Shown here: positions 1 to 16,675 of the stretch, one piece after another
How positions within the stretch are numbered: position 1 is the stretch's first letter
How the letters are laid out: every line of letters begins with the position of its first letter
IMG/VR virus record: IMGVR_UViG_2554235189_000012
Span: 1-17,836 of that record
Strand: one strand, 5' to 3'
DNA: 17,836 nt
Source: a virus
Lineage: Duplodnaviria; Heunggongvirae; Uroviricota; Caudoviricetes
Notes under the pieces: model-generated
Told to the model about the DNA's origin: nothing
Seen by the model: the letters and a program-made list of their open reading frames with translations, nothing else
Database searches by the model: none
Translations under genes and position numbers: made by a program

Positions 1-1248
1 ATGGCACTGAATATTCCATTCAGAAATGCGTACTATCGTTTTGCATCCAGTTACTCATTTCTCTTTTTTATTTCCTGGTCGCTGTGGTGGTCGTTATACG
101 CTATTTGGCTGAAAGGACATCTAGGGTTGACAGGGACGGAATTAGGTACACTTTATTCGGTCAACCAGTTTACCAGCATTCTATTTATGATGTTCTACGG
201 CATCGTTCAGGATAAACTCGGTCTGAAGAAACCGCTCATCTGGTGTATGAGTTTCATCCTGGTCTTGACCGGACCGTTTATGATTTACGTTTATGAACCG
301 TTACTGCAAAGCAATTTTTCTGTAGGTCTAATTCTGGGGGCGCTATTTTTTGGCTTGGGGTATCTGGCGGGATGCGGTTTGCTTGATAGCTTCACCGAAA
401 AAATGGCGCGAAATTTTTATTTCGAATATGGAACAGCGCGCGCCTGGGGATCTTTTGGCTATGCTATTGGCGCGTTCTTTGCCGGCATATTTTTTAGTAT
501 CAGTCCCCATATCAACTTCTGGTTGGTCTCGCTATTTGGCGCTGTATTTATGATGATCAACATGCGTTTTAAAGATAAGGATCACCAGTGCGTAGCGGCA
601 GATGCGGGAGGGGTAAAAAAAGAGGATTTTATCGCAGTTTTCAAGGATCGAAACTTCTGGGTTTTCGTCATATTTATTGTGGGGACGTGGTCTTTCTATA
701 ACATTTTTGATCAACAACTTTTTCCTGTCTTTTATGCAGGTTTATTCGAATCACACGATGTAGGAACGCGCCTGTATGGTTATCTCAACTCATTCCAGGT
801 GGTACTCGAAGCGCTGTGCATGGCGATTATTCCTTTCTTTGTGAATCGGGTAGGGCCAAAAAATGCATTACTTATCGGAGTTGTGATTATGGCGTTGCGT
901 ATCCTTTCCTGCGCGCTGTTCGTTAACCCCTGGATTATTTCATTAGTGAAGTTGTTACATGCCATTGAGGTTCCACTTTGTGTCATATCCGTCTTCAAAT
1001 ACAGCGTGGCAAACTTTGATAAGCGCCTGTCGTCGACGATCTTTCTGATTGGTTTTCAAATTGCCAGTTCGCTTGGGATTGTGCTGCTTTCAACGCCGAC
1101 TGGGATACTCTTTGACCACGCAGGCTACCAGACAGTTTTCTTCGCAATTTCGGGTATTGTCTGCCTGATGTTGCTATTTGGCATTTTCTTCTTGAGTAAA
1201 AAACGCGAGCAAATAGTTATGGAAACGCCTGTACCTTCAGCAATATAG
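1..1248 (+). CDS. cscB: Sucrose permease, LacY-family MFS sugar:H+ symporter
   Basis: 415-aa ORF beginning at window base 1 with TAG stop at 1246-1248; strongly hydrophobic multi-TM profile; sequence recognised from memory as E. coli CscB (MALNIPFRNAYYRF...). Confidence 0.9.
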   Translation: MALNIPFRNAYYRFASSYSFLFFISWSLWWSLYAIWLKGHLGLTGTELGTLYSVNQFTSILFMMFYGIVQDKLGLKKPLIWCMSFILVLTGPFMIYVYEPLLQSNFSVGLILGALFFGLGYLAGCGLLDSFTEKMARNFYFEYGTARAWGSFGYAIGAFFAGIFFSISPHINFWLVSLFGAVFMMINMRFKDKDHQCVAADAGGVKKEDFIAVFKDRNFWVFVIFIVGTWSFYNIFDQQLFPVFYAGLFESHDVGTRLYGYLNSFQVVLEALCMAIIPFFVNRVGPKNALLIGVVIMALRILSCALFVNPWIISLVKLLHAIEVPLCVISVFKYSVANFDKRLSSTIFLIGFQIASSLGIVLLSTPTGILFDHAGYQTVFFAISGIVCLMLLFGIFFLSKKREQIVMETPVPSAI

Positions 1249-1257
1249 ACGTAAACT

Positions 1258-1301
1258 TTTTCCGGTTGTTGTCGATAGCTCTATATCCCTCAACCGGAAA
1301 A
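1258..1301. repeat. Perfect 11-bp inverted repeat (TTTTCCGGTTG ... CAACCGGAAAA) with 22-nt loop, 10 nt after cscB stop
   Basis: Read directly from sequence; no U-run on either strand after the stem, so not a classical intrinsic terminator. Confidence 0.5.
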
Positions 1302-1689
1302 TAATAATAGTAAAATGCTTAGCCCTGCTAATAATCGCCTAATCCAAACGCCTCATTCATGTTCTGGTACAGTCGCTCAAATGTACTTCAGATGCGCGGT
1401 TCGCTGATTTCCAGGACATTGTCGTCATTCAGTGACCTGTCCCGTGTATCACGGTCCTGCGAATTCATCAAGGAATGCATTGCGGAGTGAAGTATCGAGT
1501 CACGCCATATTTCGCTATCAGGATTCTGTGTGATGGTTACATCGCCCGGCTCAGGGCTGTTTAGTCATCAGCGCTTTCTGACAGTGCTGAGATTTCAACC
1601 TGTTGCAGTAAAAATGAGTAGATATAAGGCAAGTGTGCTGCCAAACCCATCTTTTACGGGGTGAAGGTAGATTTCGTTTGAAGGGTATC

Positions 1690-1704
1690 TGGTGTCCCCT
1701 GCAG
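1690..1704 (-). other. 15-nt segment matching the 3' end (T-stem/acceptor/CCA) of an Arg tRNA (argW-like), reverse orientation; candidate att core remnant
   Basis: tggtgtcccctgcag is the reverse complement of CTGCAGGGGACACCA, which I recall as the 3' end of E. coli tRNA-Arg(CCU); identity stops after 15 nt, so no complete tRNA gene is present. Confidence 0.4.
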
Positions 1705-1777
1705 ACATCTACTTGAAGCGACAGGGGATTGATTGGAATGGTGTTTTTTAGATGTGAAAAATATTTTACCCGCTATT

Positions 1778-1978
1778 TTACCCATTGGCGCGGCTTAAGA
1801 GCTTATTTTTGAATTCACAATGGTCACGATATAACCATCTTGCTCGCCCGTGGATAACTTTGGCTTTTGGCAGGTCGCCGGACTTAATCCGGTCGTAGAT
1901 GAAGGTTTTACCGAAGCCAGTATCGGCCATGATGAATTTCAAATCAACCAGTGAATCAGGCTGGAGTTCGTGTTGCAT
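1778..1978 (-). CDS. xis: Excisionase-like / AlpA-family small DNA-binding protein
   Basis: 66-aa ORF with GGAG about 9 nt upstream of ATG; motif FIMADTGFGKTFIYDRIKSGDLPKAKVIHGRARW resembles prophage excisionase/AlpA-type winged-helix proteins; located at the prophage-chromosome junction. Confidence 0.5.
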   Translation of the reverse strand: MQHELQPDSLVDLKFIMADTGFGKTFIYDRIKSGDLPKAKVIHGRARWLYRDHCEFKNKLLSRANG

Positions 1979-1997
1979 GAGTGCTATCTCCGAATAT

Positions 1998-2013
1998 GGA
2001 ATCGAACCTGCAA
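1998..2013 (-). other. 16-nt segment matching the T-arm of the same Arg tRNA (reverse orientation), on the other side of xis
   Basis: ggaatcgaacctgcaa is the reverse complement of TTGCAGGTTCGATTCC, the stretch I recall immediately 5' of the 15-nt piece at 1690-1704 in argW; flanks do not continue the tRNA. Confidence 0.3.
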
Positions 2014-2020
2014 ATCAGGT

Positions 2021-2043
2021 AATAAAAAACCGCCATCAGGCGG
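2021..2043 (-). terminator. Putative intrinsic terminator on minus strand (5-bp stem CCGCC/GGCGG, loop TGAT, then TTTTTTATT)
   Basis: Hairpin plus U-run read from sequence; short stem, so moderate confidence; sits at the 3' end of the IS2-interrupted ORF. Confidence 0.4.
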
Positions 2044-2083
2044 CTTGGTGTTCTTTCAGTTCTTCAATACAAATATTGGTTAC

Positions 2084-2088
2084 GTCTG
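2084..2088. repeat. IS2 target-site duplication GTCTG (left copy)
   Basis: Identical 5-bp GTCTG directly abuts both ends of the IS2 element; 5-bp duplication is typical for IS2. Confidence 0.8.
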
Positions 2089-2099
2089 TGGATTTGCCC

Positions 2100-3005
2100 C
2101 TATATTTCCAGACATCTGTTATCACTTAACCCATTACAAGCCCGCTGCCGCAGATATTCCCGTGGCGAGCGATAACCCAGCGCACTATGCGGATGCCATT
2201 CGTTATAATGCTCGAACGCCTCTGCAAGGTTCTTTGCTGCCGTTAACCCGTCTGGTTTGGGCATGATACTGATGTAGTCACGCTTTATCGTTTTCACGAA
2301 GCTCTCTGCTATTCCGTTACTCTCCGGACTCCGCACCGCCGTGTTCTTCGGTTCAAGTCCCAACATCCGGGCGAACTGGCGTGTTTCATTAGCCCGGTAG
2401 CATGAACCATTATCCGTCAGCCACTCCACTGGAGACGACGGAAGATCGTTGCCGAAGCGGCGTTCCACCGCTCCCAGCATGACGTCCTGTACTGTTTCAC
2501 TGTTGAAGCCGCCGGTAGTCACCGCCCAGTGCAGTGCCTCACGATCACAGCAGTCCAGCGCGAACGTGACACGCAGTCTCTCTCCGTTATCACAGCAGAA
2601 CTCGAACCCGTCAGAGCACCATCGCTGATTGCTTTCTTTCACGGCCACTCTGCCTGTATGTGCCCGTTTCGATGGCGGTACAGCAGGTTTTCGCTCAAGC
2701 AACAGCGCATTCTGGCGCATGATCCGGTAAACACGTTTGGCATTGATCGCAGGCATACCATCAAGTTCTGCCTGTCTGCGAAGCAGCGCCCATACCCGAC
2801 GATAACCATACGTGGGCAGCTCTCCGATAACATGGTGTATACGGAGAAGCACATCCGTATCATCAGTGTGACGACTGCGGCGGCCATCCATCCAGTCATC
2901 GGTTCGTCTGAGAATGACGTGCAACTGCGCACGCGACACCCGGAGACAACGGCTGACTAAGCTTACTCCCCATCCCCGGGCAATAAGGGCGCGTGCGCTA
3001 TCCAC
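2100..3005 (-). CDS. insD: IS2 transposase OrfB (DDE integrase-type catalytic domain)
   Basis: 301-aa [26 protein letters not shown]... recognised as IS2 InsD; overlaps the 3' end of insC as expected for an IS3-family -1 frameshift arrangement. Confidence 0.9.
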
Positions 3006-3328
3006 TTTTTTGCCCGTCCATATTCAACGGCTTCTTTGAGGAGTTCATTTTCCATCGTTTTCTTGCCGAGCAGGCGCTGGAGTTCTTTAATCTGCTTCAT
3101 GGCGGCAGCAAGTTCAGAGGCAGGAACAACCTGTTCTCCGGCGGCCACAGCAGTAAGACTTCCTTCCTGGTATTGCTTACGCCAGAGAAATAACTGGCTG
3201 GCTGCTACACCATGTTGCCGGGCAACGAGGGAGACCGTCATCCCCGGTTCAAAGCTCTGCTGAACAATTGCGATCTTTTCCTGTGTGGTACGCCGTCTGC
3301 GTTTCTCCGGCCCTAAGACATCAATCAT
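2963..3328 (-). CDS. insC: IS2 OrfA (HTH DNA-binding protein)
   Basis: 121-aa [44 protein letters not shown]... recognised as IS2 InsC; the ORF-track entry starts 15 codons further upstream. Confidence 0.9.
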
Positions 3329-3419
3329 CTGTTCTCCAATGACTAGTCTAAAAACTAGTATTAAGACTATCACTTATTTAAGTGATACTGGTTGTCTGGA
3401 GATTCAGGGGGCCAGTCTA

Positions 3420-3424
3420 GTCTG
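3420..3424. repeat. IS2 target-site duplication GTCTG (right copy)
   Basis: See left copy at 2084-2088. Confidence 0.8.
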
Positions 3425-3550
3425 CATGTGCTATCTGCGCCCATATCATCCAGTGGTCATAGCAGTCGTTGATGTTCTCTGCTTCGATAACCCTGTCGAA
3501 TGACTCTCCATTCCATTCACCTGTGACTCGGAAGTGCATTTATCATCTCC

Positions 3551-3577
3551 ATAAAACAAAACTCGCCGTAGCGAGTT
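3551..3577 (-). terminator. Putative intrinsic terminator on minus strand (stem AACTCGC/GCGAGTT, loop TACG, then TTTGTTTTAT)
   Basis: 7-bp inverted repeat followed by a U-rich tract on the minus strand, 43 bp downstream of the 3620-3811 gene. Confidence 0.5.
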
Positions 3578-3619
3578 CAGATAAAAGAAATCCATCAATT
3601 GGTTAGGGTTTTTGTAATT

Positions 3620-3811
3620 CTACGAATTATGTTGTTTTTTAGCTTCAGCTTTCCATTCATCAAAGGCAGTGTCTTTGTTCATGGTGCTGATATTGATCTT
3701 ACGGTCAATATCATATACACGCCACTCACCGTTGGGCCTCTCTTCGCATCTAACTAAGTATGAATTGCCATTAATATCTATGCGTCTGTCTATTTGCATG
3801 AACATTTTCAA
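3620..3811 (-). CDS. Hypothetical small protein (63 aa)
   Basis: ORF MKMFMQIDRRIDINGNSYLVRCEERPNGEWRVYDIDRKINISTMNKDTAFDEWKAEAKKQHNS; AGAGGA upstream of a TTG/ATG start cluster; preceded by an AT-rich region with a TATAAT box and followed by a terminator. Confidence 0.45.
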   Translation of the reverse strand: MKMFMQIDRRIDINGNSYLVRCEERPNGEWRVYDIDRKINISTMNKDTAFDEWKAEAKKQHNS

Positions 3812-3874
3812 TTTTCGAATCCTCTTTAATATGCATTTTTTGCTATTTCAGTAGTTTACTATTGATGAGGCGTT

Positions 3875-3880
3875 ATTATA
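3875..3880 (-). promoter_or_regulatory. Candidate promoter -10 element TATAAT on minus strand, upstream of the 3620-3811 gene
   Basis: Consensus TATAAT on the minus strand in the AT-rich 3812-3922 intergenic region; no well-spaced -35 (TTGCAT lies only 12 nt upstream), so weak evidence. Confidence 0.3.
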
Positions 3881-3922
3881 CACACTTCATTAATGCAAGC
3901 ATCTTTATGCTATGCTACTAAT

Positions 3923-4204
3923 TTAGCAATTGATATTCACCTTTATCGCGTATACCTTTACCGGTTTATCACCGAAGTGGGGGTGTGTGATTGTTTTCAC
4001 TTCATATCCTCCATACGGAACATCAATTCTGCGACTGGAGTCGTCGCGCTTCGGATATCCCTTTGTGATAATCAGGCGGTCATACTCCCGGAACATAATT
4101 CGCTTATTCCAATAGTCATTACACAGGCGATACTCTTCCGTTTTCTCCCCGCGAATCATGGCATCGAAGTATTCACCTTTGACGGCAAGTTGTAGGTTAG
4201 CCAC
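3923..4204 (-). CDS. ASCH/PUA-like small protein (93 aa)
   Basis: GTG start preceded by AGGAGG at 6-nt spacing; motif YFDAMIRGEKTEEYR resembles the conserved N-terminal signature of ASCH-domain proteins; start overlaps the stop of the upstream gene. Confidence 0.45.
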   Translation of the reverse strand: MANLQLAVKGEYFDAMIRGEKTEEYRLCNDYWNKRIMFREYDRLIITKGYPKRDDSSRRIDVPYGGYEVKTITHPHFGDKPVKVYAIKVNINC

Positions 4205-4499
4205 GGTTAACCTCCTGCGGAGTAGCCTTTACAAGCACTGGTGTAAATCCATCTTCATTAAGGTTATGAATATAGACTTCTGTTCTCCTGCGCTCTTCAA
4301 CGTTTAATATTGTTTCTGGATCATAAACCCATACTTTCATTCGACTATTCCATGAAGAAATCGCTTCAGATCTAGTTCGTTTTTCTGGTCCTTGGGCACC
4401 ACATTTGCATGACACATAGCGCATTTTCCCTCTGATACTGAATGAGTATCCGATATTAAGCACAGTGGAACCACAGAATGGGCAGCGATATAGATTCAT
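4197..4499 (-). CDS. Lar-family restriction-alleviation-like protein with C-terminal extension (100 aa)
   Basis: N-terminal CPFCGS...(22 aa)...CKCGAQGP...AISSWNSR matches the Lar-family zinc-ribbon pattern; start overlaps upstream stop (ATGA). Confidence 0.6.
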   Translation of the reverse strand: MNLYRCPFCGSTVLNIGYSFSIRGKMRYVSCKCGAQGPEKRTRSEAISSWNSRMKVWVYDPETILNVEERRRTEVYIHNLNEDGFTPVLVKATPQEVNRG

Positions 4500-5029
4500 A
4501 AATCATCCACCTTAGGCGCAGCTGAGACAGCAACATTCCAGAACTCAGAAAACATATTGTATGCACCAGATAGATTGGAAGTGGCATACCCTCCAAGCTC
4601 ACTTCTAATCTGAACGGCTCTCATCATTTCCGGTGCTAACTCCTTCGGCACCATAACCCAACCATCCGGAGTTACCGGAGAGTTGCCCGACAGCTCGTTC
4701 AACTTGTAAGTTTGGCTTACAGGTTCGGCTTCCAGTTCTGCTATGCGCTTTTTTGCTGCTTCCAGCTCGCCAAGCAGCGCCAAGACGGTAGCTGGATTGG
4801 CTGCGGCGATGAATTCAGCATTGGCCTGCTGTTCCATTTGGAAATCTTCATCGAAACCGCTTTCAGGATGCGCTCCTTCAATTCTGCAAATGGGAATATA
4901 TCCAACAACTTCACGATGAATTAGCGCATCACCAGCATCAAATCTCTCCTCTCCATATTCGAGCGACCACACACCACACGTTGCTTTCTCTGCCTTTTCA
5001 CGCAGTGCCTGATAGTCAATCTTGCTCAT
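4496..5029 (-). CDS. Ead/Ea22-like prophage protein (177 aa)
   Basis: N-terminus MSKIDYQALREKAEKATCGVW resembles the conserved N-terminus of Ead/Ea22-like proteins of lambdoid prophages; typical position between xis and the recombination genes. Confidence 0.5.
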   Translation of the reverse strand: MSKIDYQALREKAEKATCGVWSLEYGEERFDAGDALIHREVVGYIPICRIEGAHPESGFDEDFQMEQQANAEFIAAANPATVLALLGELEAAKKRIAELEAEPVSQTYKLNELSGNSPVTPDGWVMVPKELAPEMMRAVQIRSELGGYATSNLSGAYNMFSEFWNVAVSAAPKVDDL

Positions 5030-5030
5030 G

Positions 5031-5330
5031 TCACATCACCCTGAATCCGTTGCATTTACGTAAAAAATCGCAGATATAGCCCTTCATTTTTTCGTGCCAA
5101 TCTCGATCATTCCCATTGCACCAACCATAAGGTGGAGTCCAGTTTTCTATCAGAGCAGCCATTTTCTTTGCTTTTGCAGGAGTAGCTGTTGCGGTATCGC
5201 AGTAATGACGAGTGTCGATCAACGTATCCATACCATCGATATCAAGTACGCAAAACCATGTGTGATTCGGCATTTCAACAGATGGTATTTGTTGCCCACG
5301 TCGACGTTTATCAATAAGACATACAGTCAT
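5031..5330 (-). CDS. Hypothetical protein (99 aa)
   Basis: ORF with AAGGTGG upstream of ATG; start overlaps upstream stop (ATGA); no family recognised. Confidence 0.5.
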   Translation of the reverse strand: MTVCLIDKRRRGQQIPSVEMPNHTWFCVLDIDGMDTLIDTRHYCDTATATPAKAKKMAALIENWTPPYGWCNGNDRDWHEKMKGYICDFLRKCNGFRVM

Positions 5331-5872
5331 GGTTCCACCTTCTCTATTTGCTTAAGACCGTCTCTCACTGCATTAAGTACGCGTTCCAGATACTGGTATT
5401 TCGGGTTTGGTGCCGTTGGCCAGTCGGCATACCACGGATCATCACCAAAGAGATTCAGCAGTTTGTTACCGACACCGAAACAACAGCAGCTTTCTTTTAC
5501 GTCATCGGCGTTTTCCGCCTCGTCCCACATTTCGCGAGCCTGTACCGCGTCGATTTCTCTCTCTCTTCGTAAATTTATGATTTCTGACTTCACGAAAAGC
5601 AGATTTGCATCGTTGTCATCGTCGACCGTGCTTCGCAGTTGAGGGTCGAAATAGCCGATTAGATACTCGTTGCTGACCCGCTTAATGAACGTCTGCACAT
5701 CATCACCGCCCATAGCAAACCAAGCCGCAGTCCACGCTTTTCCGTAGCAGGTGATGGTGATTCTTCCCTTACCAGGTTCGTAGTTTTCAATCATCACTCG
5801 AACCGGATCTAGTCGCTCTGCACCGGTTATAACGAATGACAACACATCAATCTTTTCAACCGTTACACTCAC
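5327..5872 (-). CDS. Hypothetical protein (~181 aa, GTG start)
   Basis: The ORF track extends this frame to 6064, but that extension overlaps the Lar-like gene at 5856-6092 in another frame; AGGAGG lies 6 nt upstream of an in-frame GTG at 5872, the start preferred here. Start remains uncertain. Confidence 0.45.
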   Translation of the reverse strand: MSVTVEKIDVLSFVITGAERLDPVRVMIENYEPGKGRITITCYGKAWTAAWFAMGGDDVQTFIKRVSNEYLIGYFDPQLRSTVDDDNDANLLFVKSEIINLRREREIDAVQAREMWDEAENADDVKESCCCFGVGNKLLNLFGDDPWYADWPTAPNPKYQYLERVLNAVRDGLKQIEKVEP

Positions 5873-6092
5873 TGGTTGCCTCCTTTGCTCGCTGATTCCA
5901 CTCTGCTCTAACCTCTGAATAAAAAATCGCGCAGTCATTTCCAGGCGCTGCATATTTGCTACCAGATTGAGCGCGACACGTACCGCATCGAACGAAATAG
6001 AATCGACCGCCAGAGCCATATTCAGGGTGATCTGCTTCGCTGGCAACGTGCGCTGCGCCGCCACAGAATGGACATGGTAGTAGGTTGCTCAT
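5856..6092 (-). CDS. Lar-family restriction-alleviation-like protein, second paralog (78 aa)
   Basis: [16 protein letters not shown]...FYFVRCGTCRAQSGSKYA...AEWNQRA matches the Lar zinc-ribbon pattern; GAGGGAG upstream of ATG at 6092; start overlaps upstream stop (ATGA). Confidence 0.55.
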   Translation of the reverse strand: MSNLLPCPFCGGAAHVASEADHPEYGSGGRFYFVRCGTCRAQSGSKYAAPGNDCAIFYSEVRAEWNQRAKEATSECNG

Positions 6093-6565
6093 GAATGCAC
6101 TCCCTCGTGAAGCTGTTCCGCACAATGCAGCAGGGCGTCCGTCGCTTCTTTCACCGTAACGATATCGCCATCGTCCAGCCCGGCAACCGTCGCGTCCTTA
6201 ACGAACACCGAGCAAAGGTCATTAAACGCCTGCGCCCGTACTTCAGCCAGAAAAGCATCGGTAGCTGGAGTTTCAGTAACATCATCTTCCCATTCGCTAA
6301 ACTCCTCACGACAAAAGTCATTAAATTCCTTCTCAGATTGCTTAAGCGATGTATTTTCAGCAGCCATCTTCGCGCATTTAGCCTCAAGGTTATCAATCGT
6401 GATTCCAGCAGAACGACACTCCCGCAACGCAGTTTCCAGTTTTGATTCAAGCTCACCGAACTTACGCACCAGATATTCAGCGTTTGTTTCGTTAACCTTT
6501 AAATCTCGTGGGATGCATTTACCTTTCAGAAAACCATCCATCTCAATTAGTGACATTTGTTTCAT
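6089..6565 (-). CDS. Hypothetical, predicted coiled-coil protein (158 aa)
   Basis: [19 protein letters not shown]...; heptad-like charged repeats; no family recognised. Confidence 0.5.
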
Positions 6566-6726
6566 TTCTTCCCACTCCGCAACATTGCATTCAGATATTT
6601 GTTGTCATTAACAGAACCGAAACTCTTTCTCTTAAGCAATTCCTCTCTCGATGGCATTGGCTTTACGCGTTGGCGAATAATCATTTCTGCCGGAAGAATG
6701 CCGGGATTGTATGCAAGTCCTCTCAT
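6562..6726 (-). CDS. Hypothetical small basic protein (54 aa), below ORF-track size cutoff
   Basis: ATG at 6726 overlaps the stop of the upstream gene (ATGA), and its own TGA overlaps the ATG of the downstream gene; [54 protein letters not shown]; exactly fills the gap between two called genes. Confidence 0.35.
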
Positions 6727-7004
6727 GATTTACTCTCAACGAACTGGTCAATAGCCATGCTAAGTGACATACCTAAAGTTTCGATATGCTGCTGAATATC
6801 CTGTAGCGTCTGCGCCTGAGATAACAGGATTTCACGGTTGCATAACTCTTTAACCAGATGCTCAAACTTGCTGTAATAACCGATACGACTTAGTGTTTCT
6901 TTCCCTGCATTCTCTCCTTCTTTGATAATTCCTCTTTCGCTAAGAATCAGGTCGTGTTTGGTTCCGGTAATAACGTATTTTCCGAGGTCGATGTTTAGCT
7001 TCAT
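6723..7004 (-). CDS. Hypothetical protein (93 aa)
   Basis: ORF with GGAG upstream of ATG at 7004; no family recognised. Confidence 0.5.
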
Positions 7005-7020
7005 TGTTAATTACTCCATG

Positions 7021-7335
7021 TTAATTTATTCGTATGCCTGCTCTTTCTTCATCGAGTTTTTTTAGCTTGTATCGCATAGCTCTTACTGAATAAATTGAGC
7101 GGCAGGTTGCAATTGCTATTTCTTCTGCGGAGAACTTACCGAAAAGTGATACTTCGGCTCTTGTCCATCGTCTTCCACGAAGTCGGCTAACAATGTCAGC
7201 GCCAATCCTTGTTGCTTTCGCCATTACTGCTTTTTCAGTCCTTTCCAGTTTTTCAGCGATAACTTCAACTGGCATTGTCGCCGCTACTTCGCGCAAGAAA
7301 TCGACTTCCCATTTCTCCCATGGAGTCTTTTTCAT
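7021..7335 (-). CDS. Putative DNA-binding protein with two Myb/SANT-like repeats (104 aa)
   Basis: Two tandem ~40-aa segments each with a conserved Trp followed by helix-like A/E/I-rich stretches (WEKWEVDFLREVAATMPVEVIAEKL and RRWTRAEVSLFGKFSAEEIAIATCR); assignment is by pattern only. Confidence 0.4.
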   Translation of the reverse strand: MKKTPWEKWEVDFLREVAATMPVEVIAEKLERTEKAVMAKATRIGADIVSRLRGRRWTRAEVSLFGKFSAEEIAIATCRSIYSVRAMRYKLKKLDEERAGIRIN

Positions 7336-7346
7336 AGGCGATACCG

Positions 7347-7829
7347 TTATTTGATAAGAAGTGAAGGTTTCCCAACCTTGAGTTGAGCGCCTGGGATATT
7401 TATTCCTGCTTTTAGTTGGTGCTTGATTGCCAACTTGTCGGCTTTAATTGTCGTTTCAAACTCAACGTATTCAGGAGGAATGGCGCTTGAGTCGATGATT
7501 TCTACAGTTTCTGACGGTTTGCGGATTGTTACCTGGTGAATACCTGCTCGAATCTTTTTCTTGCCAACCATTTCAAGCGATGACGCTATATATGCCATAA
7601 TGCTATCAATCTTATTTTGAATTACTGCTGCTCGTTCATTCAGTGACTTTGCCTCGTCCTTGAGGCGTTCAGCATAACCAGATTCATTTTTAATAATGGC
7701 AAGAAGTTGCTCTATTTTATCGGTAAATTCTCCTTCCATGCCTTCTATTGTGTCAGCAATCATCTCTGGCTCTAAATCTGAATCCATCAGCTTTGCGTAT
7801 TCATTGGCTATTTCATACAGTTTGCTCAC
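7347..7829 (-). CDS. Mu Gam-like / Gp157-like protein (~160 aa)
   Basis: Directly downstream of recT; N-terminal predicted coiled coil and C-terminal G-x-V-x-I-R-x-P pattern resemble Mu Gam / siphovirus Gp157 family proteins; GTG start at 7829 preferred because GGAGG lies 6 nt upstream. Confidence 0.4.
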   Translation of the reverse strand: MSKLYEIANEYAKLMDSDLEPEMIADTIEGMEGEFTDKIEQLLAIIKNESGYAERLKDEAKSLNERAAVIQNKIDSIMAYIASSLEMVGKKKIRAGIHQVTIRKPSETVEIIDSSAIPPEYVEFETTIKADKLAIKHQLKAGINIPGAQLKVGKPSLLIK

Positions 7830-8724
7830 TGGCAACCTCCAGTTTCGCTTTGCATTCTATGTAAATGGCTTGTACGTTCTGCTGCAATTTCATTCCAGAT
7901 GTCAGGCGATATGCTTCTGCAAAATATCGCTTCAAATCATCCATGTTTTCTGCCTGAGCCATTTCATCGCAAAGAAGTTGTGCTTTATCCATTATTTCCT
8001 GCTGGCGTTTCCGTTCATCTTCGCGGATATCTTCCTCTGATTTGTGCGGCATAACTGGTTCAGTCCATACACCTTCTTCTTCGTTTAGTACGTGAATAGC
8101 ACTATCAAGACGTGATGCCTTAGGCCAATACTTGCTTGCACGCTTTACGACCGTCTTTCGCGCCATCTCATTCCAGTGATTTACCCATGGTCCTTTATCG
8201 CTGAATGCCGCCTTGCTTGTTTTCCTTACAGCCTCAATTTCAGCCAGACTCATCTCTTCCGTTAGATAATCACCTGCTGGCGTCTTAACTGTGCAGTAAA
8301 CGCCAACGATATCACCACGATCACCGAAGGCGTTGTATTTATGGGTTGGTGCTTTATCAAGCCCGTTTGACTCATAGGTATCGTTAGCATGAACAAGTTT
8401 TGCCTGACCCCATGAGATAACACCAGACTCCATTGCAATATGGAGCAATCCCATATAACTGATATCAAGGCACACCATGCCGTCGCGCGGAACCAGATAA
8501 GCCAGTTTGCTAGCCGGGTTTAAGGTGATGCCGATCGCCGCAACATTGATGATGGCGTTCTGTGCGCTGGTTGGATTTGCCAGTGCCGTTTTAGCCAGGT
8601 AATCATTTTTCTGGAAATACTGAATTGCAAACTGGCTTTCCTTAGCCCATGTCACCGTCTGTTCAGTCAATGCTCCGCAGAATAACTGCTCCTGCTGTTT
8701 AACGAATTCAACGATATTGCTCAT
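7813..8724 (-). CDS. recT: RecT-family single-strand annealing recombinase
   Basis: 303-aa ORF; motif GPWVNHWNEMARKTVVKRASKYWP closely parallels GPWVTHWEEMAKKTAIRRLFKYLP of E. coli RecT; GGAG RBS; position matches bet of lambda. Confidence 0.8.
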   Translation of the reverse strand: MSNIVEFVKQQEQLFCGALTEQTVTWAKESQFAIQYFQKNDYLAKTALANPTSAQNAIINVAAIGITLNPASKLAYLVPRDGMVCLDISYMGLLHIAMESGVISWGQAKLVHANDTYESNGLDKAPTHKYNAFGDRGDIVGVYCTVKTPAGDYLTEEMSLAEIEAVRKTSKAAFSDKGPWVNHWNEMARKTVVKRASKYWPKASRLDSAIHVLNEEEGVWTEPVMPHKSEEDIREDERKRQQEIMDKAQLLCDEMAQAENMDDLKRYFAEAYRLTSGMKLQQNVQAIYIECKAKLEVASEQTV

Positions 8725-9032
8725 GCTGCTTCTCCATAAATGTGTCTGCGTTTGAATATTGCGAAGGCATATTCAGCCTTAACTCTTTCGGTTATTGCAT
8801 CCCAGAACCATTCAGCGGCTTTTTCCTGATAGTCACAGTCATCATCTTCCAGCCAGTCGATAGCGTCCTTAGTGTGTTCATCTGGTTTATATGAGCGAAG
8901 CATTTCGCTTATTGGGTCGCAACGTTTGCAGAGGCGATCAACTTCACTGTTGATTCGTTCGTAATCATCATCAGTAAAACTTGCGATGATTTGCGATATT
9001 TCACGCTTATCATTCAGAGTCAGAATCATCAT
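8721..9032 (-). CDS. Hypothetical acidic protein (103 aa) at the gam/abc position
   Basis: ORF with AGGAGAAAG upstream of ATG; Asp/Glu-rich; lies between kil and recT where lambda has gam and P22 has abc1/abc2; function not assignable from sequence. Confidence 0.5.
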   Translation of the reverse strand: MMILTLNDKREISQIIASFTDDDYERINSEVDRLCKRCDPISEMLRSYKPDEHTKDAIDWLEDDDCDYQEKAAEWFWDAITERVKAEYAFAIFKRRHIYGEAA

Positions 9033-9113
9033 CTTTCTCCTGTTCTTTGTGCTGATTGAGCATTTCTTTCATCTGACGAATGAATTCTTCGTCTGACCAG
9101 TTATCTGTAAAAC

Positions 9114-9266
9114 TCATTTCCTGCGATACCACGGAAGGTTGATAGCTGATTTCATCGCTTTATTTGCTTCAAGCCACATTTTTGAATCACCAATAAATCT
9201 GGCTATTACTGCTTTGTTCTGTGCAGCACGAAGCATCTGGTGATTAATGGCTATTTCATTGCGCAT
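9114..9266 (-). CDS. kil: Kil-like host cell-division inhibitor (50 aa), below ORF-track size cutoff
   Basis: MRNEIAINHQMLRAAQNKAVIARFIGDSKMWLEANKAMKSAINLPWYRRK shares the IA-FIGD-KM-EA pattern I recall from lambda Kil; immediately downstream of cIII as in lambda; GAGG RBS 7 nt upstream. Confidence 0.45.
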   Translation of the reverse strand: MRNEIAINHQMLRAAQNKAVIARFIGDSKMWLEANKAMKSAINLPWYRRK

Positions 9267-9376
9267 AATAAGACCTCAACTCTTTTCCATCCGTCACGTA
9301 ATTTACGGGTGATTCGTTCAAGTAAAGATTCGGAAGGGCAGCCAGCAACAGGCCACCCTGCAATGGCATATTGCAT
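9251..9376 (-). CDS. cIII: CIII-like regulator (inhibitor of FtsH-mediated CII degradation)
   Basis: MQYAIAGWPVAGCPSESLLERITRKLRDGWKR matches the lambda CIII N-terminal region as I recall it; AAGGAG RBS; the ORF-track entry 9251-9478 includes a non-coding upstream extension. Confidence 0.8.
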   Translation of the reverse strand: MQYAIAGWPVAGCPSESLLERITRKLRDGWKRVEVLLCAMK

Positions 9377-9436
9377 GGTGTGCTCCTTATTTATACATAA
9401 CGAAAAACGCCTCTCGTGAAGCGTTATTGGTATGCA

Positions 9437-9463
9437 TATAAAAAGGCCCTCACACTGGAGGGC
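9437..9463 (-). terminator. Intrinsic terminator on minus strand (stem GCCCTC/GAGGGC, 6-nt loop, then CTTTTTAT) upstream of cIII
   Basis: GC-rich 6-bp hairpin followed by a U-run on the minus strand; analogous in position to a tL terminator that would need N antitermination for read-through. Confidence 0.55.
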
Positions 9464-9599
9464 AAAGAAGATTTCCAATAATCAGAACAAGTCGGCTCCT
9501 GTTTAGTTACGAGCGACATTGCTCCGTGTATTCACTCGTTGGAATGAATACACAGTGCAGTGTTTATTCTGTTGTTTATGCCAAAAATAAAGGCCACTA

Positions 9600-9851
9600 T
9601 CAGGCAGCTTTGTTGTAAATGTTGCAGGTATCAAGTAAGTAATTAGATGGAGCGCCATAAATTATGAATTCATCGTTTGTCTGGTCCATCTCCATCTCTT
9701 GGCCTATTGCCATTCTTGCGTCAGTGTCATCAGCGGCGAAGCATAAAACAGCCCACGCACCCATTGTTTTAAAAAGAACTGCAATTGGCTGTGGTTTTAC
9801 TGAATTTGCGTTAGCGCGAAAATCACAAATCGCACTTTCATGAAATTCCAT
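9600..9851 (-). CDS. Hypothetical protein (83 aa)
   Basis: ORF MEFHESAICDFRANANSVKPQPIAVLF...; preceded by the conserved 26-nt leader and a GAGGTGA RBS. Confidence 0.5.
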   Translation of the reverse strand: MEFHESAICDFRANANSVKPQPIAVLFKTMGAWAVLCFAADDTDARMAIGQEMEMDQTNDEFIIYGAPSNYLLDTCNIYNKAA

Positions 9852-9858
9852 ATCTCAC

Positions 9859-9884
9859 CTCAAATAATTGGTTTGCTGCCAAAA
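9859..9884 (-). promoter_or_regulatory. Conserved 26-nt 5' leader element, copy 1 (minus strand TTTTGGCAGCAAACCAATTATTTGAG)
   Basis: 25/26 identical to a second copy at 10096-10121; both end 7 nt upstream of an ATG start codon. Confidence 0.4.
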
Positions 9885-9893
9885 GAAAACCGA

Positions 9894-10088
9894 CTATGCG
9901 TCCTGTCGTTTTTCCGACGCTCTATTCATTTCCTGCCAGATGGCAACTACAGCATCTTCAATATTTCTTTCCTTCAGATCCCATAAATCCCACAGGCCTG
10001 GCATCTCATGACCAAGTTCATCTAAAAGTTTTTTTGCTCCAGCCTGAATCACGTTCTCACTCAGTTGAATCTCTGTTGTTGATTTCAT
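9894..10088 (-). CDS. Hypothetical protein (64 aa; alternative start at 10154 would give 86 aa)
   Basis: ATG at 10088 is preceded by GAGAGGA and the conserved leader; the upstream in-frame ATG at 10154 overlaps the previous stop (ATGA) and cannot be excluded. Confidence 0.45.
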   Translation of the reverse strand: MKSTTEIQLSENVIQAGAKKLLDELGHEMPGLWDLWDLKERNIEDAVVAIWQEMNRASEKRQDA

Positions 10089-10095
10089 AATTCCT

Positions 10096-10121
10096 CTCAA
10101 ATAAGTGGTTTGCTGCCAAAA
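10096..10121 (-). promoter_or_regulatory. Conserved 26-nt 5' leader element, copy 2 (minus strand TTTTGGCAGCAAACCACTTATTTGAG)
   Basis: See copy 1 at 9859-9884. Confidence 0.4.
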
Positions 10122-10150
10122 CAATGAACCATCCGGAAATTCCAGATAGT

Positions 10151-10375
10151 TCATAATTCACTCTTCAATACTTCCAACTTACTAATCGCCGATAGATATC
10201 CGCGCTGATAGGGCATCATCATTCCTTCGAGCTTGCCACTTCTTAACTCCTCCCTGAGCAATTGTATTGCTTGATCAATAACCTCTGCCTTAGCGTCCTT
10301 TATGGCTTGCTTGCGGGGCTTTGCTTTCTGCTTTGGCAGATTTCTCAAGCATGATGGAATGTATGTCTGATTCAT
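10151..10375 (-). CDS. Hypothetical basic protein (74 aa) immediately downstream of N
   Basis: ATG 3 nt after the N stop codon, GAGG upstream; Lys/Arg-rich; no family recognised. Confidence 0.5.
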   Translation of the reverse strand: MNQTYIPSCLRNLPKQKAKPRKQAIKDAKAEVIDQAIQLLREELRSGKLEGMMMPYQRGYLSAISKLEVLKSEL

Positions 10376-10378
10376 CAC

Positions 10379-10651
10379 TTACCTCGCTGTCAGTTGTTTT
10401 GATTTCCGGTAGCCTGCCGCGTAAAGAGCTACGTTTGGCAGGCAAATACTTCCACTGCATTCATCTGCCTTCTTGCAGCGAAGGCCTCCGAGTGATGCTG
10501 CTTTATCTGCTCTGACGCAACCAGAGAGCTTTAGCGCAATTTTTCGCGCCAGTCGCTGCTCTTGCATTGCCTGTTCACGTTGAGCCTGTCTGCGTGCTCT
10601 GCGGCGATTTCTGGCGTTATCGTCAGCCAGATATGTAATGACTACTGCCAT
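10379..10651 (-). CDS. N: N-like transcription antitermination protein with arginine-rich motif
   Basis: 90-aa ORF with GGAGG RBS; Arg-rich N-terminus (NARNRRRARRQAQREQ); central and C-terminal segments (ARKIALKLSGCVRADKAASLG..., VALYAAGYRKSKQLTAR) resemble phage 21 and P22 N proteins as recalled; lies downstream of pL/nutL. Confidence 0.75.
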   Translation of the reverse strand: MAVVITYLADDNARNRRRARRQAQREQAMQEQRLARKIALKLSGCVRADKAASLGGLRCKKADECSGSICLPNVALYAAGYRKSKQLTAR

Positions 10652-10758
10652 GTTGACCTCCGATGATTGACTTTGGCGGTGACGCGCCGGGTGCTTATCT
10701 TCCGGTTGCCGTCGTGCAGCTGCACTTCACGTCACCCCAAAGCCAACTACTCTTTGGT

Positions 10759-10799
10759 TCCCGCATTTCGGCGGGACAATCCCATCAATGTTAAAGAGC
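10759..10799 (-). promoter_or_regulatory. nutL-like site: boxA GCTCTTTAAC plus boxB hairpin TCCCGCCGAAATGCGGGA (minus strand)
   Basis: The same boxA and boxB sequences occur on the plus strand between cro and cII (nutR); each lies downstream of its promoter. Confidence 0.55.
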
Positions 10800-10845
10800 C
10801 TGCCAATCTGTTCCGTTTGGCTACCAGCGTCCTGCTGATGGCTAA

Positions 10846-10874
10846 AGAATACTGTAGGTATTTTATTGTGTAAA
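10846..10874 (-). promoter_or_regulatory. Candidate pL promoter (-35 TTTACA, 17-nt spacer, -10 TATTCT) overlapping operators
   Basis: Hexamers read on the minus strand overlap two AATAC-N5-GTATT operators; the same -10 hexamer and operator arrangement occur at pR. Confidence 0.4.
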
Positions 10875-10932
10875 TACCCAAGGTATTTATTTTTGATGAA
10901 ATAATGATAAGCAAATGAATACAAAGGATATT
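10848..10932. promoter_or_regulatory. oL operator region: three AATAC-N5-GTATT-type sites (10848-10862, 10873-10887, 10918-10932)
   Basis: AATACTGTAGGTATT, AATACCCAAGGTATT (part of a perfect 17-bp palindrome AAATACCCAAGGTATTT), AATACAAAGGATATT; same half-site as the oR sites. Confidence 0.55.
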
Positions 10933-11018
10933 TATTTTTTCGGTGTCTGCTTGTTCAGTGCTTTTTATGCGGGATATGTGAAGTGGATCCCGATAGCTAT
11001 TGCTGCCGGGATTATAGG

Positions 11019-11387
11019 TTAGTCAGCGAAGGTTAAGACGAGAATTACCTTAATGATGTCTGCTACAACAGACACGGCCATAGATAAACCAAAGACGATC
11101 CAAGCCACAGTGATGTCTTCACTACCATCGTATAGAGTTCCGTAATCACTGGTGTAAGGCGTAAATGTCGCGCCTTGATACAATAGGTATAAGCTTGATC
11201 CATAGAGGATAAATGCAGATATCCCTTGTATTGCTATGATCACCAGAATCATGAAACGAGCTGATCTATGCGCCCAAGCCTGGCTTATTTTTTCTGATAG
11301 AGATTTCGCAATAAAAGTATGCGCTAAGCCGTAAATTGTCGAGATTGCCAACATCCCAAAAAAGCTTGCTATAGCGGTTCCAACCAT
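11019..11387 (-). CDS. Small integral membrane protein (~122 aa, three predicted TM helices) downstream of cI
   Basis: ORF begins 18 nt after the cI stop with AAGGGG upstream of ATG at 11387 (the ORF track starts it at a TTG inside the cI stop); three hydrophobic segments; occupies the position of rexAB in lambda. Confidence 0.6.
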   Translation of the reverse strand: MVGTAIASFFGMLAISTIYGLAHTFIAKSLSEKISQAWAHRSARFMILVIIAIQGISAFILYGSSLYLLYQGATFTPYTSDYGTLYDGSEDITVAWIVFGLSMAVSVVADIIKVILVLTFAD

Positions 11388-11404
11388 AATCGCCCCTTGC
11401 GTGA

Positions 11405-12121
11405 TCAAACCAGCCTTAGTTTTGTCTCAATTGCAACGCCTATAATCTTGCAGTTTCCATTGATTGGCACGAGAGGCCATGCAGGATTAAGTCCCTTGAG
11501 GTATTTATTTCCGCCGTCGATTATCAGCTTCTTGAATGTTGCTTCGTTAGAGTCAGAAAGTTTTGCTATGACCAAGCTGCCGTTGATCGCCTCCCTTCCG
11601 GTATCGAAAAGAACGAATGTTCCCTCTGGAATACTTAACCCAACCGGTGCCGTCATTGAATCACCTTCCACTTTAAGCCAGAACGCATTACCTTGAATAT
11701 GCGCGTCAGACTCAAGCCAAACATCTATGTCTTTAATGGTGTATGGTTCGCATGCTTCACACCACGAGCCAGCCTGGATACTGCTTAACACCGGATACCT
11801 CTTTCCTGCTCTGTATTCCCCTGCATACCTTACGTTGGCATCGCTCTTAAGGCTTTCTGCCTGTTCTGCAACCTTGGCAGCAATTGACTGGCTAAAATCA
11901 GCAATTGAGACTTGCAACAAACGTGCAAAACCAGATGCGACCTCAACGTTTAGCGCGTTTCTGCCATTAAGATAATGCCCTACCGCTCCTTGGGTGATAC
12001 CCAGTTCATCAGCGATTGAGTATTGGGTTATTCCCAATTCTTTCTTTTTTGACTCATACAAAGCCTTAAGCCGCTTAGCGTCTTCGAGCTGTTCTGTCGT
12101 CAGTGATTTTTTATTTTCCAT
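11405..12121 (-). CDS. cI: CI-type prophage repressor (HTH_XRE N-terminal domain plus LexA/S24-like C-terminal domain)
   Basis: 238-aa ORF; N-terminus TEQLEDAKRLKALYESKKKELGITQYSIADELG parallels lambda CI; C-terminal FWLKVEGDSMTAP matches the S24 autocleavage domain; divergent from cro with operators between. Confidence 0.9.
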   Translation of the reverse strand: MENKKSLTTEQLEDAKRLKALYESKKKELGITQYSIADELGITQGAVGHYLNGRNALNVEVASGFARLLQVSIADFSQSIAAKVAEQAESLKSDANVRYAGEYRAGKRYPVLSSIQAGSWCEACEPYTIKDIDVWLESDAHIQGNAFWLKVEGDSMTAPVGLSIPEGTFVLFDTGREAINGSLVIAKLSDSNEATFKKLIIDGGNKYLKGLNPAWPLVPINGNCKIIGVAIETKLRLV

Positions 12122-12156
12122 AGCTTAATTCTAATAGCTAAGGTACTTAAACTAAA

Positions 12157-12196
12157 AATACCCTGAGTATTGATTGCTTTGAATACCTGTAGTATT
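12157..12196. promoter_or_regulatory. oR operator region: two AATAC-N5-GTATT sites (12157-12171, 12182-12196)
   Basis: AATACCCTGAGTATT and AATACCTGTAGTATT, 10 bp apart, between cI and cro; a third site nearer cI could not be defined. Confidence 0.55.
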
Positions 12197-12198
12197 CT
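12170..12198 (+). promoter_or_regulatory. Candidate pR promoter (-35 TTGATT, 17-nt spacer, -10 TATTCT)
   Basis: Hexamers overlap the two oR sites; cro ATG about 30 nt downstream. Confidence 0.4.
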
Positions 12199-12227
12199 TT
12201 GTTCATGGTTAATAACGGAGAGTGCAT

Positions 12228-12422
12228 ATGATTCGAATGACACTTGCCGATTACGCCAAAATCCATGGACAGGCTAAAGCAGCCAGTGACTTTGGTGTAA
12301 TCCAGTGCGCTATCAGCAAGGCCATTCTGGCAGGCCGTAACATTATGGTTACGGTAAAGCCTGATGGCAGTGTGATTGGAGAGGAAGTTCGTCCTTTCCC
12401 AAGCAACAAGAAAAACAAATAG
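12228..12422 (+). CDS. cro: Cro-like repressor
   Basis: 64-aa [65 protein letters not shown], homologous in pattern to lambda Cro; GGAG RBS; the ORF track starts it at an upstream GTG. Confidence 0.8.
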
Positions 12423-12429
12423 TAACACC

Positions 12430-12473
12430 GCTCTTTAACAGTCATGGTCCTCATTCCCGCCGAAATGCGGGAA
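12430..12473 (+). promoter_or_regulatory. nutR-like site: boxA GCTCTTTAAC plus boxB hairpin TTCCCGCCGAAATGCGGGAA
   Basis: 7-bp stem and 6-nt loop hairpin 14 nt after boxA, between cro and cII; boxB core identical to nutL. Confidence 0.55.
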
Positions 12474-12530
12474 TACAACGCGCATAAGTTGATGCGCATA
12501 ACTTCTTATTTGTTAAGGAAATACTTACAT

Positions 12531-12824
12531 ATGGTTCGTGCAAACAAACGCAACGAGGCTCTACGAATCGAGAGTGCGTTGCTTAACAAAATCGCAATGC
12601 TTGGAACTGAGAAGACAGCGGAAGCTGTGGGAGTTGATAAGTCGCAGATCAGCAGGTGGAAGAGGGACTGGATTCCAAAGTTCTCAATGCTGCTTGCTGT
12701 TCTTGAATGGGGCGTCGTTGACGACGATATGGCTCGATTGGCACGACAAGTTGCTTCGATTCTCACCAATAAAAAACGCCCGGCGGCAACCGAGCGTTCT
12801 GAACAAATCCAGATGGAATTCTGA
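12531..12824 (+). CDS. cII: CII transcriptional activator (lambda-type)
   Basis: 97-aa product [51 protein letters not shown]... is, as far as I can recall, essentially identical to lambda CII; upstream RBS region also lambda-like. Confidence 0.9.
12540..12553 (-). promoter_or_regulatory. CII-binding TTGC-N6-TTGC repeat of a pRE-type promoter (minus strand)
   Basis: Minus strand reads TTGCGTTTGTTTGC inside the 5' end of cII, as in lambda pRE. Confidence 0.5.
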
Positions 12825-12846
12825 GGTCATTACTGGATCTATCAAC
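12770..12846 (-). ncRNA. oop: Possible oop-like antisense RNA (terminator hairpin within 3' end of cII; promoter only partly conserved)
   Basis: Lambda-like sequence at the cII 3' end includes a GC-rich hairpin followed by TTTTTTATTGG on the minus strand; a CATAAT -10 is retained but the -35 region differs because the downstream sequence is not lambda-like. Extent inferred by analogy. Confidence 0.3.
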
Positions 12847-12856
12847 AGGAGTAATT

Positions 12857-13002
12857 ATGACAAAACAACTCAGTCCTTACCAGGACAAAATTCACAAACA
12901 CATACTACGTGATCGCTTCCTGTCCAGCTTCAAGCAGCCTGGTCGATTCAGGGCTGAGTTGGAAAAAGTGAAGCTGATGCAGAAGGAGAAAGGTCATGAG
13001 TA
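12857..13002 (+). CDS. Hypothetical 48-aa protein between cII and the O-like gene (reminiscent of P22 orf48 by position and size)
   Basis: AGGAG 6 nt upstream of ATG at 12857; [48 protein letters not shown]; stop overlaps the O-like start; its RBS and first codons coincide with where lambda O would start. Confidence 0.4.
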
Positions 13003-13856: not shown

Positions 13857-13859
13857 ACC

Positions 13860-13967
13860 ATGAAATCAAAAATCAAATCGCTACTGGTCGCTGGTTATAA
13901 CCACGGCTGGTTAAGTATTTCGTTTGTCGATTTCTGGTTTAAAAATCTCAATCTGAGGGAATCATGA
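13860..13967 (+). CDS. Possible 35-aa coupling ORF between O-like and primase-helicase genes
   Basis: ATG 4 nt after the O-like stop with AGGTGA upstream; MKSKIKSLLVAGYNHGWLSISFVDFWFKNLNLRES; its stop overlaps the helicase ATG (ATGA). Could equally be non-coding. Confidence 0.25.
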   Translation: MKSKIKSLLVAGYNHGWLSISFVDFWFKNLNLRES

Positions 13968-15844: not shown

Positions 15845-15873
15845 ATGACCATCTACATTACTGAGCTAATAAC

Positions 15874-15906
15874 AGGCCTGCTGGTAATCGCAGGCCTTTT
15901 TATTTG
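15874..15906 (+). terminator. Intrinsic terminator (8-bp stem AGGCCTGC/GCAGGCCT, 8-nt loop, then TTTTATTTG), tR2-like
   Basis: Read directly; immediately downstream of the primase-helicase gene. Confidence 0.55.
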
Positions 15907-15932
15907 CATCAGAAACAGAGTGAGGTGAGAGC

Positions 15933-16121: not shown

Positions 16122-16146
16122 CACCCCAGCACACTAATGGAGAGAA

Positions 16147-16347: not shown

Positions 16348-16358
16348 TGGAGAGGAAT

Positions 16359-16673: not shown

Positions 16674-16675
16674 CG

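Follow-up and report, generated by a model that had tools for sequence, protein, structure and literature searches.

The region at positions 1249-2088 of the window (the whole 17,836-nt stretch of viral DNA analysed here) very probably corresponds to the attR junction of a P22-like lambdoid prophage inserted in argW, with a recombination module of the KplE1/HK620/Sf6 type. The arrangement is already known: it is the ordinary right-hand end of an HK620/Sf6/KplE1-type argW prophage. An excisionase gene and a tRNA fragment without an adjoining integrase constitute the normal attR signature of these prophages, and such ends should not be scored during annotation as those of a degraded or “locked-in” prophage. 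What is left of possible interest is the T-arm-like leader, a conserved element, that precedes the excisionase gene, torI.

The argW pieces and the attR junction

The 15-mer CTGCAGGGGACACCA, identical to the last 15 nt of Escherichia coli K-12 argW (L001, positions 1370-1384), was present as a single copy on the minus strand, at 1690-1704. The 16-mer TTGCAGGTTCGATTCC, corresponding to the argW stretch directly 5' of the 15-mer, with one C common to both, was likewise found only once, at 1998-2013 on the minus strand. The 3' terminus of K-12 argW reads ...AATTGCAGGTTCGATTCCTGCAGGGGACACCA, and the two pieces are consecutive parts of this tRNA 3' end. Chance matching was ruled out for both pieces, each unique in the window, with expected numbers of matches of 0.01 for the 15-mer and 0.04 for the 16-mer, even with two mismatches allowed. 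A 66-codon ORF (1778-1978, minus strand) sits between the two pieces, which are separated by 293 nt, and the stop codon (TAA) of this ORF lies 73 nt from the 15-mer. Read along the minus strand of 1640-2110, the upper part contains an intrinsic terminator followed by ...ATTACCTGAT-TTGCAGGTTCGATTCC-ATATTCGGAGATAGCACTC-ATG, and the lower part contains the 66-codon ORF, the TAA codon, 73 nt and CTGCAGGGGACACCA-GATACCC... The initial annotation had described a 15-nt argW segment 75 bp from an excisionase-like gene and a 16-nt segment at 1998-2013 on the other side of this gene, the tRNA 3' portion being split by about 295 bp. These pieces are real and both align to the K-12 argW sequence; the distances were corrected to 73 and 293 nt, with a one-C overlap between the pieces. 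The end coordinate of that annotation, 2088, is the final base ahead of an IS2 element. ARAGORN identified no tRNA gene in the window, and no hidden tRNA or tmRNA gene was found, the Rfam search over 1500-2200 yielding only sub-threshold noise.

The left end of the window is host DNA. The cscB gene, encoding a sucrose/oligosaccharide MFS permease (1-1248, plus strand), is annotated as such in hundreds of E. coli genomes, and it is followed by host intergenic DNA (1249-1689) forming the right flank of attB, which normally lies directly after argW. For the empty-site test, argW was joined in silico to the reverse complement of window positions 1390-1689, and complete E. coli genomes were searched with the resulting 375-nt construct. 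An uninterrupted match with 100% identity was obtained in many E. coli genomes, and at least 80% of the construct was covered in 2620 genomes. In prophage-free strains, cscB lies 441 nt from argW, as illustrated by FORC_069, with the gene order yfdC - argW - 441 nt - cscB - cscK. The alignment with prophage-free argW and its flanks proposed in the initial annotation therefore recovered the exact empty site, which identifies 1689/1690 as the prophage boundary and the 15-mer as the duplicated core. The best coverage of the window by any genome of the E. coli collection was 54%.

The 66-codon ORF is torI, the gene for the recombination directionality factor (RDF, or excisionase) of the KplE1/HK620/Sf6 module. 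Its 66-aa product is identical to K-12 TorI at all 66 residues (100%), its PHROG match was to family 66, “excisionase and transcriptional regulator”, and hundreds of E. coli genomes matching the region at 98-99% carry the gene under the name torI. The 15-mer at 1690-1704 (minus strand) is identical in sequence and equivalent to the K-12 pawZ pseudogene (L001, positions 11585-11599), annotated at the end of CPS-53. It also matches the published 16-nt core of the module, CTGCAGGGGACACCAT (PMC2951348), the 16th base being a host-derived G in the window and a T in K-12. For a KplE1/HK620/Sf6-type module, this 15-mer represents the att core in duplicate. The P arm of attR (1705-1800, minus strand) contains two integrase arm-type repeats, GGGTAAAAT, at 1783-1775 and 1771-1763, which overlap the torI stop codon and have the same sequence as the HK620 “attP” repeat_region (L108, positions 1695-1717). 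TorI- and IntS-dependent excision has been demonstrated for KplE1 and HK620 substrates (PMC2951348, PMC3509656). The 135-bp attR fragment active in excision in vitro starts at the primer CTCTTAAGCCGCGCCAATGG (PMC3509656), which corresponds to window positions 1800-1781, at the 3' end of torI, so the 16-mer is not part of this fragment.

The features of module membership present in the window are thus a TorI-type 66-aa winged-helix RDF, an argW-identical core at the boundary between prophage and host, and the position of torI as the last prophage gene, read towards attR. The closest parallel is KplE1 (CPS-53), the cryptic prophage of K-12 with the order argW-attL-intS ... torI-attR(pawZ), which spans the last 15 nt of argW to the 15-nt pawZ, with intS as its first gene and torI as its last. 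The window shares with KplE1 an identical TorI, the 15-nt core, the arm-type repeats over the torI stop codon and the 16-mer leader, located 19 nt upstream of torI in K-12. However, KplE1 is a 10-kb remnant flanked by dsdC, without a terminator hairpin upstream of the leader, whereas the window contains a lambdoid prophage with an intact early region, flanked by cscB. The P22-like phages HK620, Sf6, Kapi1 and CUS-3 (hkaC/gene 18/xis - attP - int) have the same module, with a 100% identical RDF, the gene for which is preceded by the same terminator and leader. They are free genomes with attP, whereas the window presents the integrated attR form, and the phage of the window has another early-gene mosaic plus an IS2 element.

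Position of the integrase

No integrase was detected by tblastn with K-12 IntS against the window (best E-value 0.75), in agreement with the initial annotation, which had reported no integrase ORF and had inferred that the prophage was probably excision-defective. No such inference follows from the arrangement, as the integrase of these prophages is normally at the opposite end. The free phage carries torI, the P arm, the 15/16-nt core, the P' arm and intS in this order and all in the same direction, and IntS catalyses recombination between the core and the 3' terminus of argW, which has the same sequence. Once the phage is integrated, intS adjoins the regenerated argW at one prophage end, and torI, with the 15-nt copy of the tRNA end, lies at the other, here beside cscB. 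The location of attP between torI and intS places the two genes at opposite prophage ends after integration, so a missing integrase is expected and is not a defect; no integrase would be anticipated within about 25-35 kb of the torI junction.

This organisation, in which xis and a distal int have att between them, was among the alternatives listed in the initial annotation and is the published one. In Kapi1, Sf6, HK620 and KplE1, attP lies between int and xis, which are hence at opposite ends once integrated, and int is never on the torI side in the KplE1/HK620/Sf6 group (PMC8787464). The module has been described as having uncoupled int and RDF transcription and as conserved in HK620, Sf6 and CUS-3 (PMC2951348). 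The GenBank records of HK620 and Sf6 agree: in the free genome, hkaC/gene 18 (= TorI) is collinear with the attP core and int. The attP form, torI - core - P' arm, is also found in several IMG/VR contigs. Strain WCHEC025943, the closest complete relative, has the order cscB - attR - torI ... intS - argW - yfdC, with a normal attL; its prophage is 41 kb long and P22-like, and terminates in tailspike - intS - argW - yfdC. A P4-family IntS beside an intact argW at the opposite end, with five RDF sites and P' arm sites across the intS promoter, was seen in both WCHEC025943 and K-12, at a location that lies beyond this window, which extends about 14 kb into the prophage and includes early and replication genes only. 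By analogy with WCHEC025943, the integrase would be expected 25-35 kb past the right end of the window, beside an intact argW, and we infer that intS is at the far end of the prophage of this strain too.

The initial annotation had also considered a deleted or rearranged att region. A strain-specific event of this kind, in which an integrase gene formerly situated between the tRNA fragment and xis, in a lambda-type attL-int-xis layout, was lost, would account for the absence of an integrase from the window and for the presence of an IS element close by, but we consider it extremely improbable. The lambda-type layout fails here, with only 73 nt between the core and the torI stop codon and no integrase similarity in the window. 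The 346-bp stretch from 2035, in the T-tract of the terminator, to 1690, in the core, aligns without gaps to K-12 (333/346 nt identical), the same 16-mer - torI - 15-mer layout is found in free HK620 and Sf6 and in K-12 KplE1, int is never found on the torI side in this group (PMC8787464), and joining at 1689/1690 gives back a perfect empty argW site. The IS2 element (1331 bp, 2089-3419, minus strand) shows 100% identity to copies labelled “IS3-like element IS2 family transposase”. It is a simple insertion: GTCTG is duplicated at the target, as 5 bp at 2084-2088 and 3420-3424, and the flanks are contiguous in the relative WCHEC025943 (L002). Deletion of the integrase by IS2 was ruled out on this basis.

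The second proposal, that the two partial tRNA copies around xis arose when elements integrated at argW in nested or tandem fashion in the chromosome of this strain, draws on the adjacency of the two pieces within the tRNA and on the known status of argW as an integration hot spot. It is nevertheless highly unlikely, since free phage genomes have the 16-mer in the corresponding position and more than 70 IMG/VR contigs carry it as well. There was no second core or int remnant between the pieces; the upstream piece lacks a core and torI alone separates the two, contrary to what would be expected of a tandem or nested array. Furthermore, a T-loop-like C-site, TTCGATGTaTGCAGG, accompanies the motif in other genera, such that the pieces overlap rather than tile. 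The KplE1-type attR junction remains by far the best explanation of the region.

The HK620/Sf6/KplE1-type module can be set beside other phage systems. Lambda and P22 resemble it in their tyrosine integrase and small winged-helix RDF, with xis reached by leftward early transcription, and in the lambdoid “boundary” terminator upstream of xis. They differ in that att lies beyond int, with int and xis together at attL, whereas att lies between the two genes here. Int of the KplE1 type has its own autoregulated promoter inside attL (PMC2951348). In P2/186 and P4, transcription of the integrase gene is independent of that of the RDF gene, and the RDF both sets directionality and acts as a repressor of int (PMC2951348); these phages differ from the window module in proteins, att sites and gene orders, and the likeness is by description only. 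Pseudomonas AlpA homologues (phi297) had a different int/RDF layout.

The T-arm-like leader of torI

Comparison with K-12, HK620 and Sf6 defined a conserved torI leader (1979-2022, minus strand) consisting of a Shine-Dalgarno GGAG, the T-arm-like 16-mer (2013-1998), with its conserved core CAGGTTCGATTCC (2010-1998), and a TTAC-N5-TTGC element (2022-2010), annotated as a cII site in HK620. The leader was identical or near-identical in K-12, HK620 and Sf6. The position of the 16-mer was likewise unchanged in K-12, in the free genomes of both phages and in almost every one of about 80 E. coli viral contigs. The 16-mer, which happens to match the argW T arm exactly, is therefore carried by the phage as part of the conserved leader preceding the excisionase gene, and is not the product of a rearrangement or of nested integration at the locus.

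Protein-similarity retrieval of RDF homologues, covering species-representative genomes, NCBI phages and IMG/VR, yielded 65 distinct RDF proteins. The sequence GTTCGATTYC was present no more than 60 nt upstream of the start codon in 38 of the 65 alleles and absent from the other 27. Its spacing was almost constant in the alleles concerned, as it ended 19 nt ahead of the ATG in 33 alleles and 18 nt ahead in three (36/65). It was also found in phages of Enterobacter, Citrobacter, Serratia, Pantoea, Edwardsiella and Erwinia, with flanks that could not be aligned with those of E. coli. Beyond E. coli, only CAGGTTCGATTCC was common to the leaders, and the extra TTG of the E. coli 16-mer was lineage-specific. 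On the phage side, a T-loop-like sequence (TTCGATGTaTGCAGG) also immediately precedes the core in most other genera, and the impression of two tiles is thus peculiar to the E. coli lineage. Every retrieved module with a readable att core targets argW. A DNA-pattern scan of IMG/VR for the motif returned mostly unrelated tRNA-like matches, with 5/120 corresponding to RDF leaders.

Two further observations were made on these leaders. In the Erwinia phage Midgardsormr38 (L112, at about 1940-2000), the motif CAGGTTCGATTCCC occurs twice, as a direct tandem with copies 16 nt apart, directly upstream of the excisionase Shine-Dalgarno sequence. In addition, L124 and L155 share with L010 and L216 near-identical upstream blocks, comprising the terminator, the motif and the Shine-Dalgarno sequence and extending to the ATG, with RDF genes only about 45% identical, which indicates a recombination breakpoint at the RDF start codon.

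Our best guess is that the leader motif regulates torI expression in cis, in a manner linked to the tRNA target or to the core specificity of the integrase. The motif is not essential to recombination itself, as 27 of the 65 alleles lack it and the attR fragment active in vitro does not contain it. The broader proposition that the T-arm-like block (CAGGTTCGATTCC) is a new cis-element, a mimic of an attB half-site or of the tRNA through which the integrase or a host tRNA-recognising factor would control excisionase synthesis, is tentative, and we would not favour it over its negation. If true, such a regulatory role would be a small addition to a well-studied model of uncoupled integrase and excisionase expression.

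The signals surrounding the motif vary between lineages. The layout of the P' arm is constant, the int promoter being preceded by a group of two and a group of three RDF sites, and the repeated word differs: GTTCG, RTTACC (phiEt88 and L241/244/255/257/258) or GAAC (L278), GTTCG, GATCG and GTCCG being the published TorI sites (PMC2951348). Arm-type sites also differ by lineage (GGGTAAAA versus GCGGGCATA). The leader motif nonetheless stays GTTCGATTCC where present, and the core stays argW wherever readable. The constancy of the motif while the RDF and arm words switch suggests that it follows the tRNA target, and not RDF or arm specificity, which argues against a TorI operator.

The motif may be a spare core-type half-site of attB (the B half, GGTTCGATTCC), at which the core-binding domain of the integrase would couple torI expression to occupancy. 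This reading, based on sequence comparisons, is possible, though we hold it at well below even chances. GGTTCGATTCC is exactly the 11 bp abutting the presumed overlap region in argW, and the motif would be compatible with recognition by the core-binding domain. The invariant 10-mer corresponds to the T loop of the tRNA with 3 further nt, it stands at a fixed distance from the ATG, Midgardsormr38 carries two tandem copies of it, and it has been kept, together with the argW core, where the RDF sites (GTTCG, RTTACC, GAAC) and arm-type sites (GGGTAAAA, GCGGGCATA) changed. Conversely, B-type half-sites are usually weak integrase binders, 27 of the 65 alleles have no motif, the motif is outside the 135-bp attR of the published in vitro excision (PMC3509656), and argW is the single common target in all lineages, leaving no covariation of motif and target for comparison.

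A rather less probable reading is that the 16-mer supplies the -35 element and spacer of a cII-activated, pI-like promoter, reading across attP into int during the establishment of lysogeny. The HK620 record places at this position both a cII site, TTGCCTGATTTGC, the second TTGC of which is the start of the 16-mer, and a “phage integration” promoter. The Sf6 record similarly has “pI; possible integrase expression promoter” within a “boundary sequence”, and there is a parallel with lambda pI, which lies just upstream of or inside xis. These HK620 and Sf6 annotations are predictions, however, and the repeats are TTGC-N5-TTGC rather than N6, the first being TTAC in the window. The TTGC repeats were kept only in lambdoid phages of E. 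coli and Salmonella, whereas GTTCGATTCC is also found in Erwinia phages, and the conserved block would fall within the promoter spacer. No sigma-70-like promoter was detected in 1600-2100, although this would be expected of an activator-dependent promoter. The torI promoter was described as “non-characterized” in the KplE1 paper of 2010 (PMC2951348).

Three remaining readings, together about as likely as the half-site, are that the motif is a TorI operator for autoregulation (with GTTCG inside it), an anti-Shine-Dalgarno element of the torI mRNA (UUCC...GGAG) or a functionless “boundary sequence” relic of mosaic exchange. The published TorI sites GTTCG/GATCG/GTCCG (PMC2951348) and the presence of a further (A/G)T(T/C)CG 12 nt downstream in several lineages are consistent with an operator, but the motif is unchanged where the RDF sites have switched to RTTACC or GAAC. 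Pairing between UUCC and GGAG was obtained in four of six minimum-free-energy folds, but the fold z-scores ranged from -1.3 to +0.7 and were not significant. A relic would be in keeping with the near-identical leaders preceding RDF alleles only about 45% identical and with the name boundary sequence given to the region in the Sf6 record; it is harder to reconcile with an invariant 10-mer and a fixed spacing across alleles 39-100% identical with otherwise unalignable flanks.

Two other origins were considered and rejected. The leader is not a decayed full tRNA 3' end in which the acceptor became the Shine-Dalgarno sequence, as the similarity of the post-motif sequence to TGCAGGGGACACCA was no better than that of shuffled sequences (p 0.17-0.7). 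A conserved RNA T-arm hairpin was also rejected, stems being found in Edwardsiella, phiEt88 and Serratia but not in E. coli, with insignificant z-scores. An ancient site-specific insertion of the RDF gene into a longer ancestral attP is still conceivable, but the post-motif leader had no significant similarity to the acceptor end.

The P' arms surveyed (L108-L113, L241, L244, L255, L257, L258, L278 and L291) contained the words GTTCG, GTTCT, RTTACC and GAAC. The switches between these words parallel RDF divergence, as if RDF specificity had changed repeatedly in nature while the att scaffold stayed the same.

The boundary segment, IS2 and the rest of the prophage

The torI leader is preceded by an intrinsic terminator with an 8-bp stem and a T tract (2027-2046, minus strand; terminator scan), enclosed in a lambdoid segment of 68 bp (about 2021-2088). 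This segment matched lambda 29103-29170 at about 95%, together with 933W, P22 and many lambdoid phages, in which it lies just upstream of xis, and in P22-pbi its equivalent bears the annotation “terminator”. The segment has the appearance of a mosaic “boundary sequence” bordering the integration module. It also gave a weak, sub-threshold Rfam match to isrK. In WCHEC025943 (L002, positions 3271-3585), about 315 extra bp, absent from the window, are present between the torI leader and the lambdoid terminator.

The IS2 element lies between the leftward early genes and the torI terminator and leader, with its transposase genes oriented like torI. If torI relies on read-through from the early-left transcript, the element could lower torI expression and excision, and it may weaken induction-coupled excision in this strain. 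IS2 upstream of torI is the only feature of the window that might affect excision. Beyond it, the window contains the early region of a lambdoid (P22-like) prophage (3420-17836), identified from PHROG matches and collinear with the WCHEC025943 prophage, with leftward Gam-like and RecT genes, a cI-type repressor gene (11405-12121, minus strand), cro/cII, and genes for an O-like replication protein, a primase/helicase and nin products.

A minor observation concerns the other end of the relative. In the attL of WCHEC025943 (L002, positions 43704-43778), the argW 3' end donated by the phage has GACGCCA in place of GACACCA, and cores with GACGCCA were also found in L011, L015/L017, L018, L021, L238 and L291. 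Such a core gives the lysogens a tRNA-Arg(CCU) with the discriminator base G73, rather than A73.
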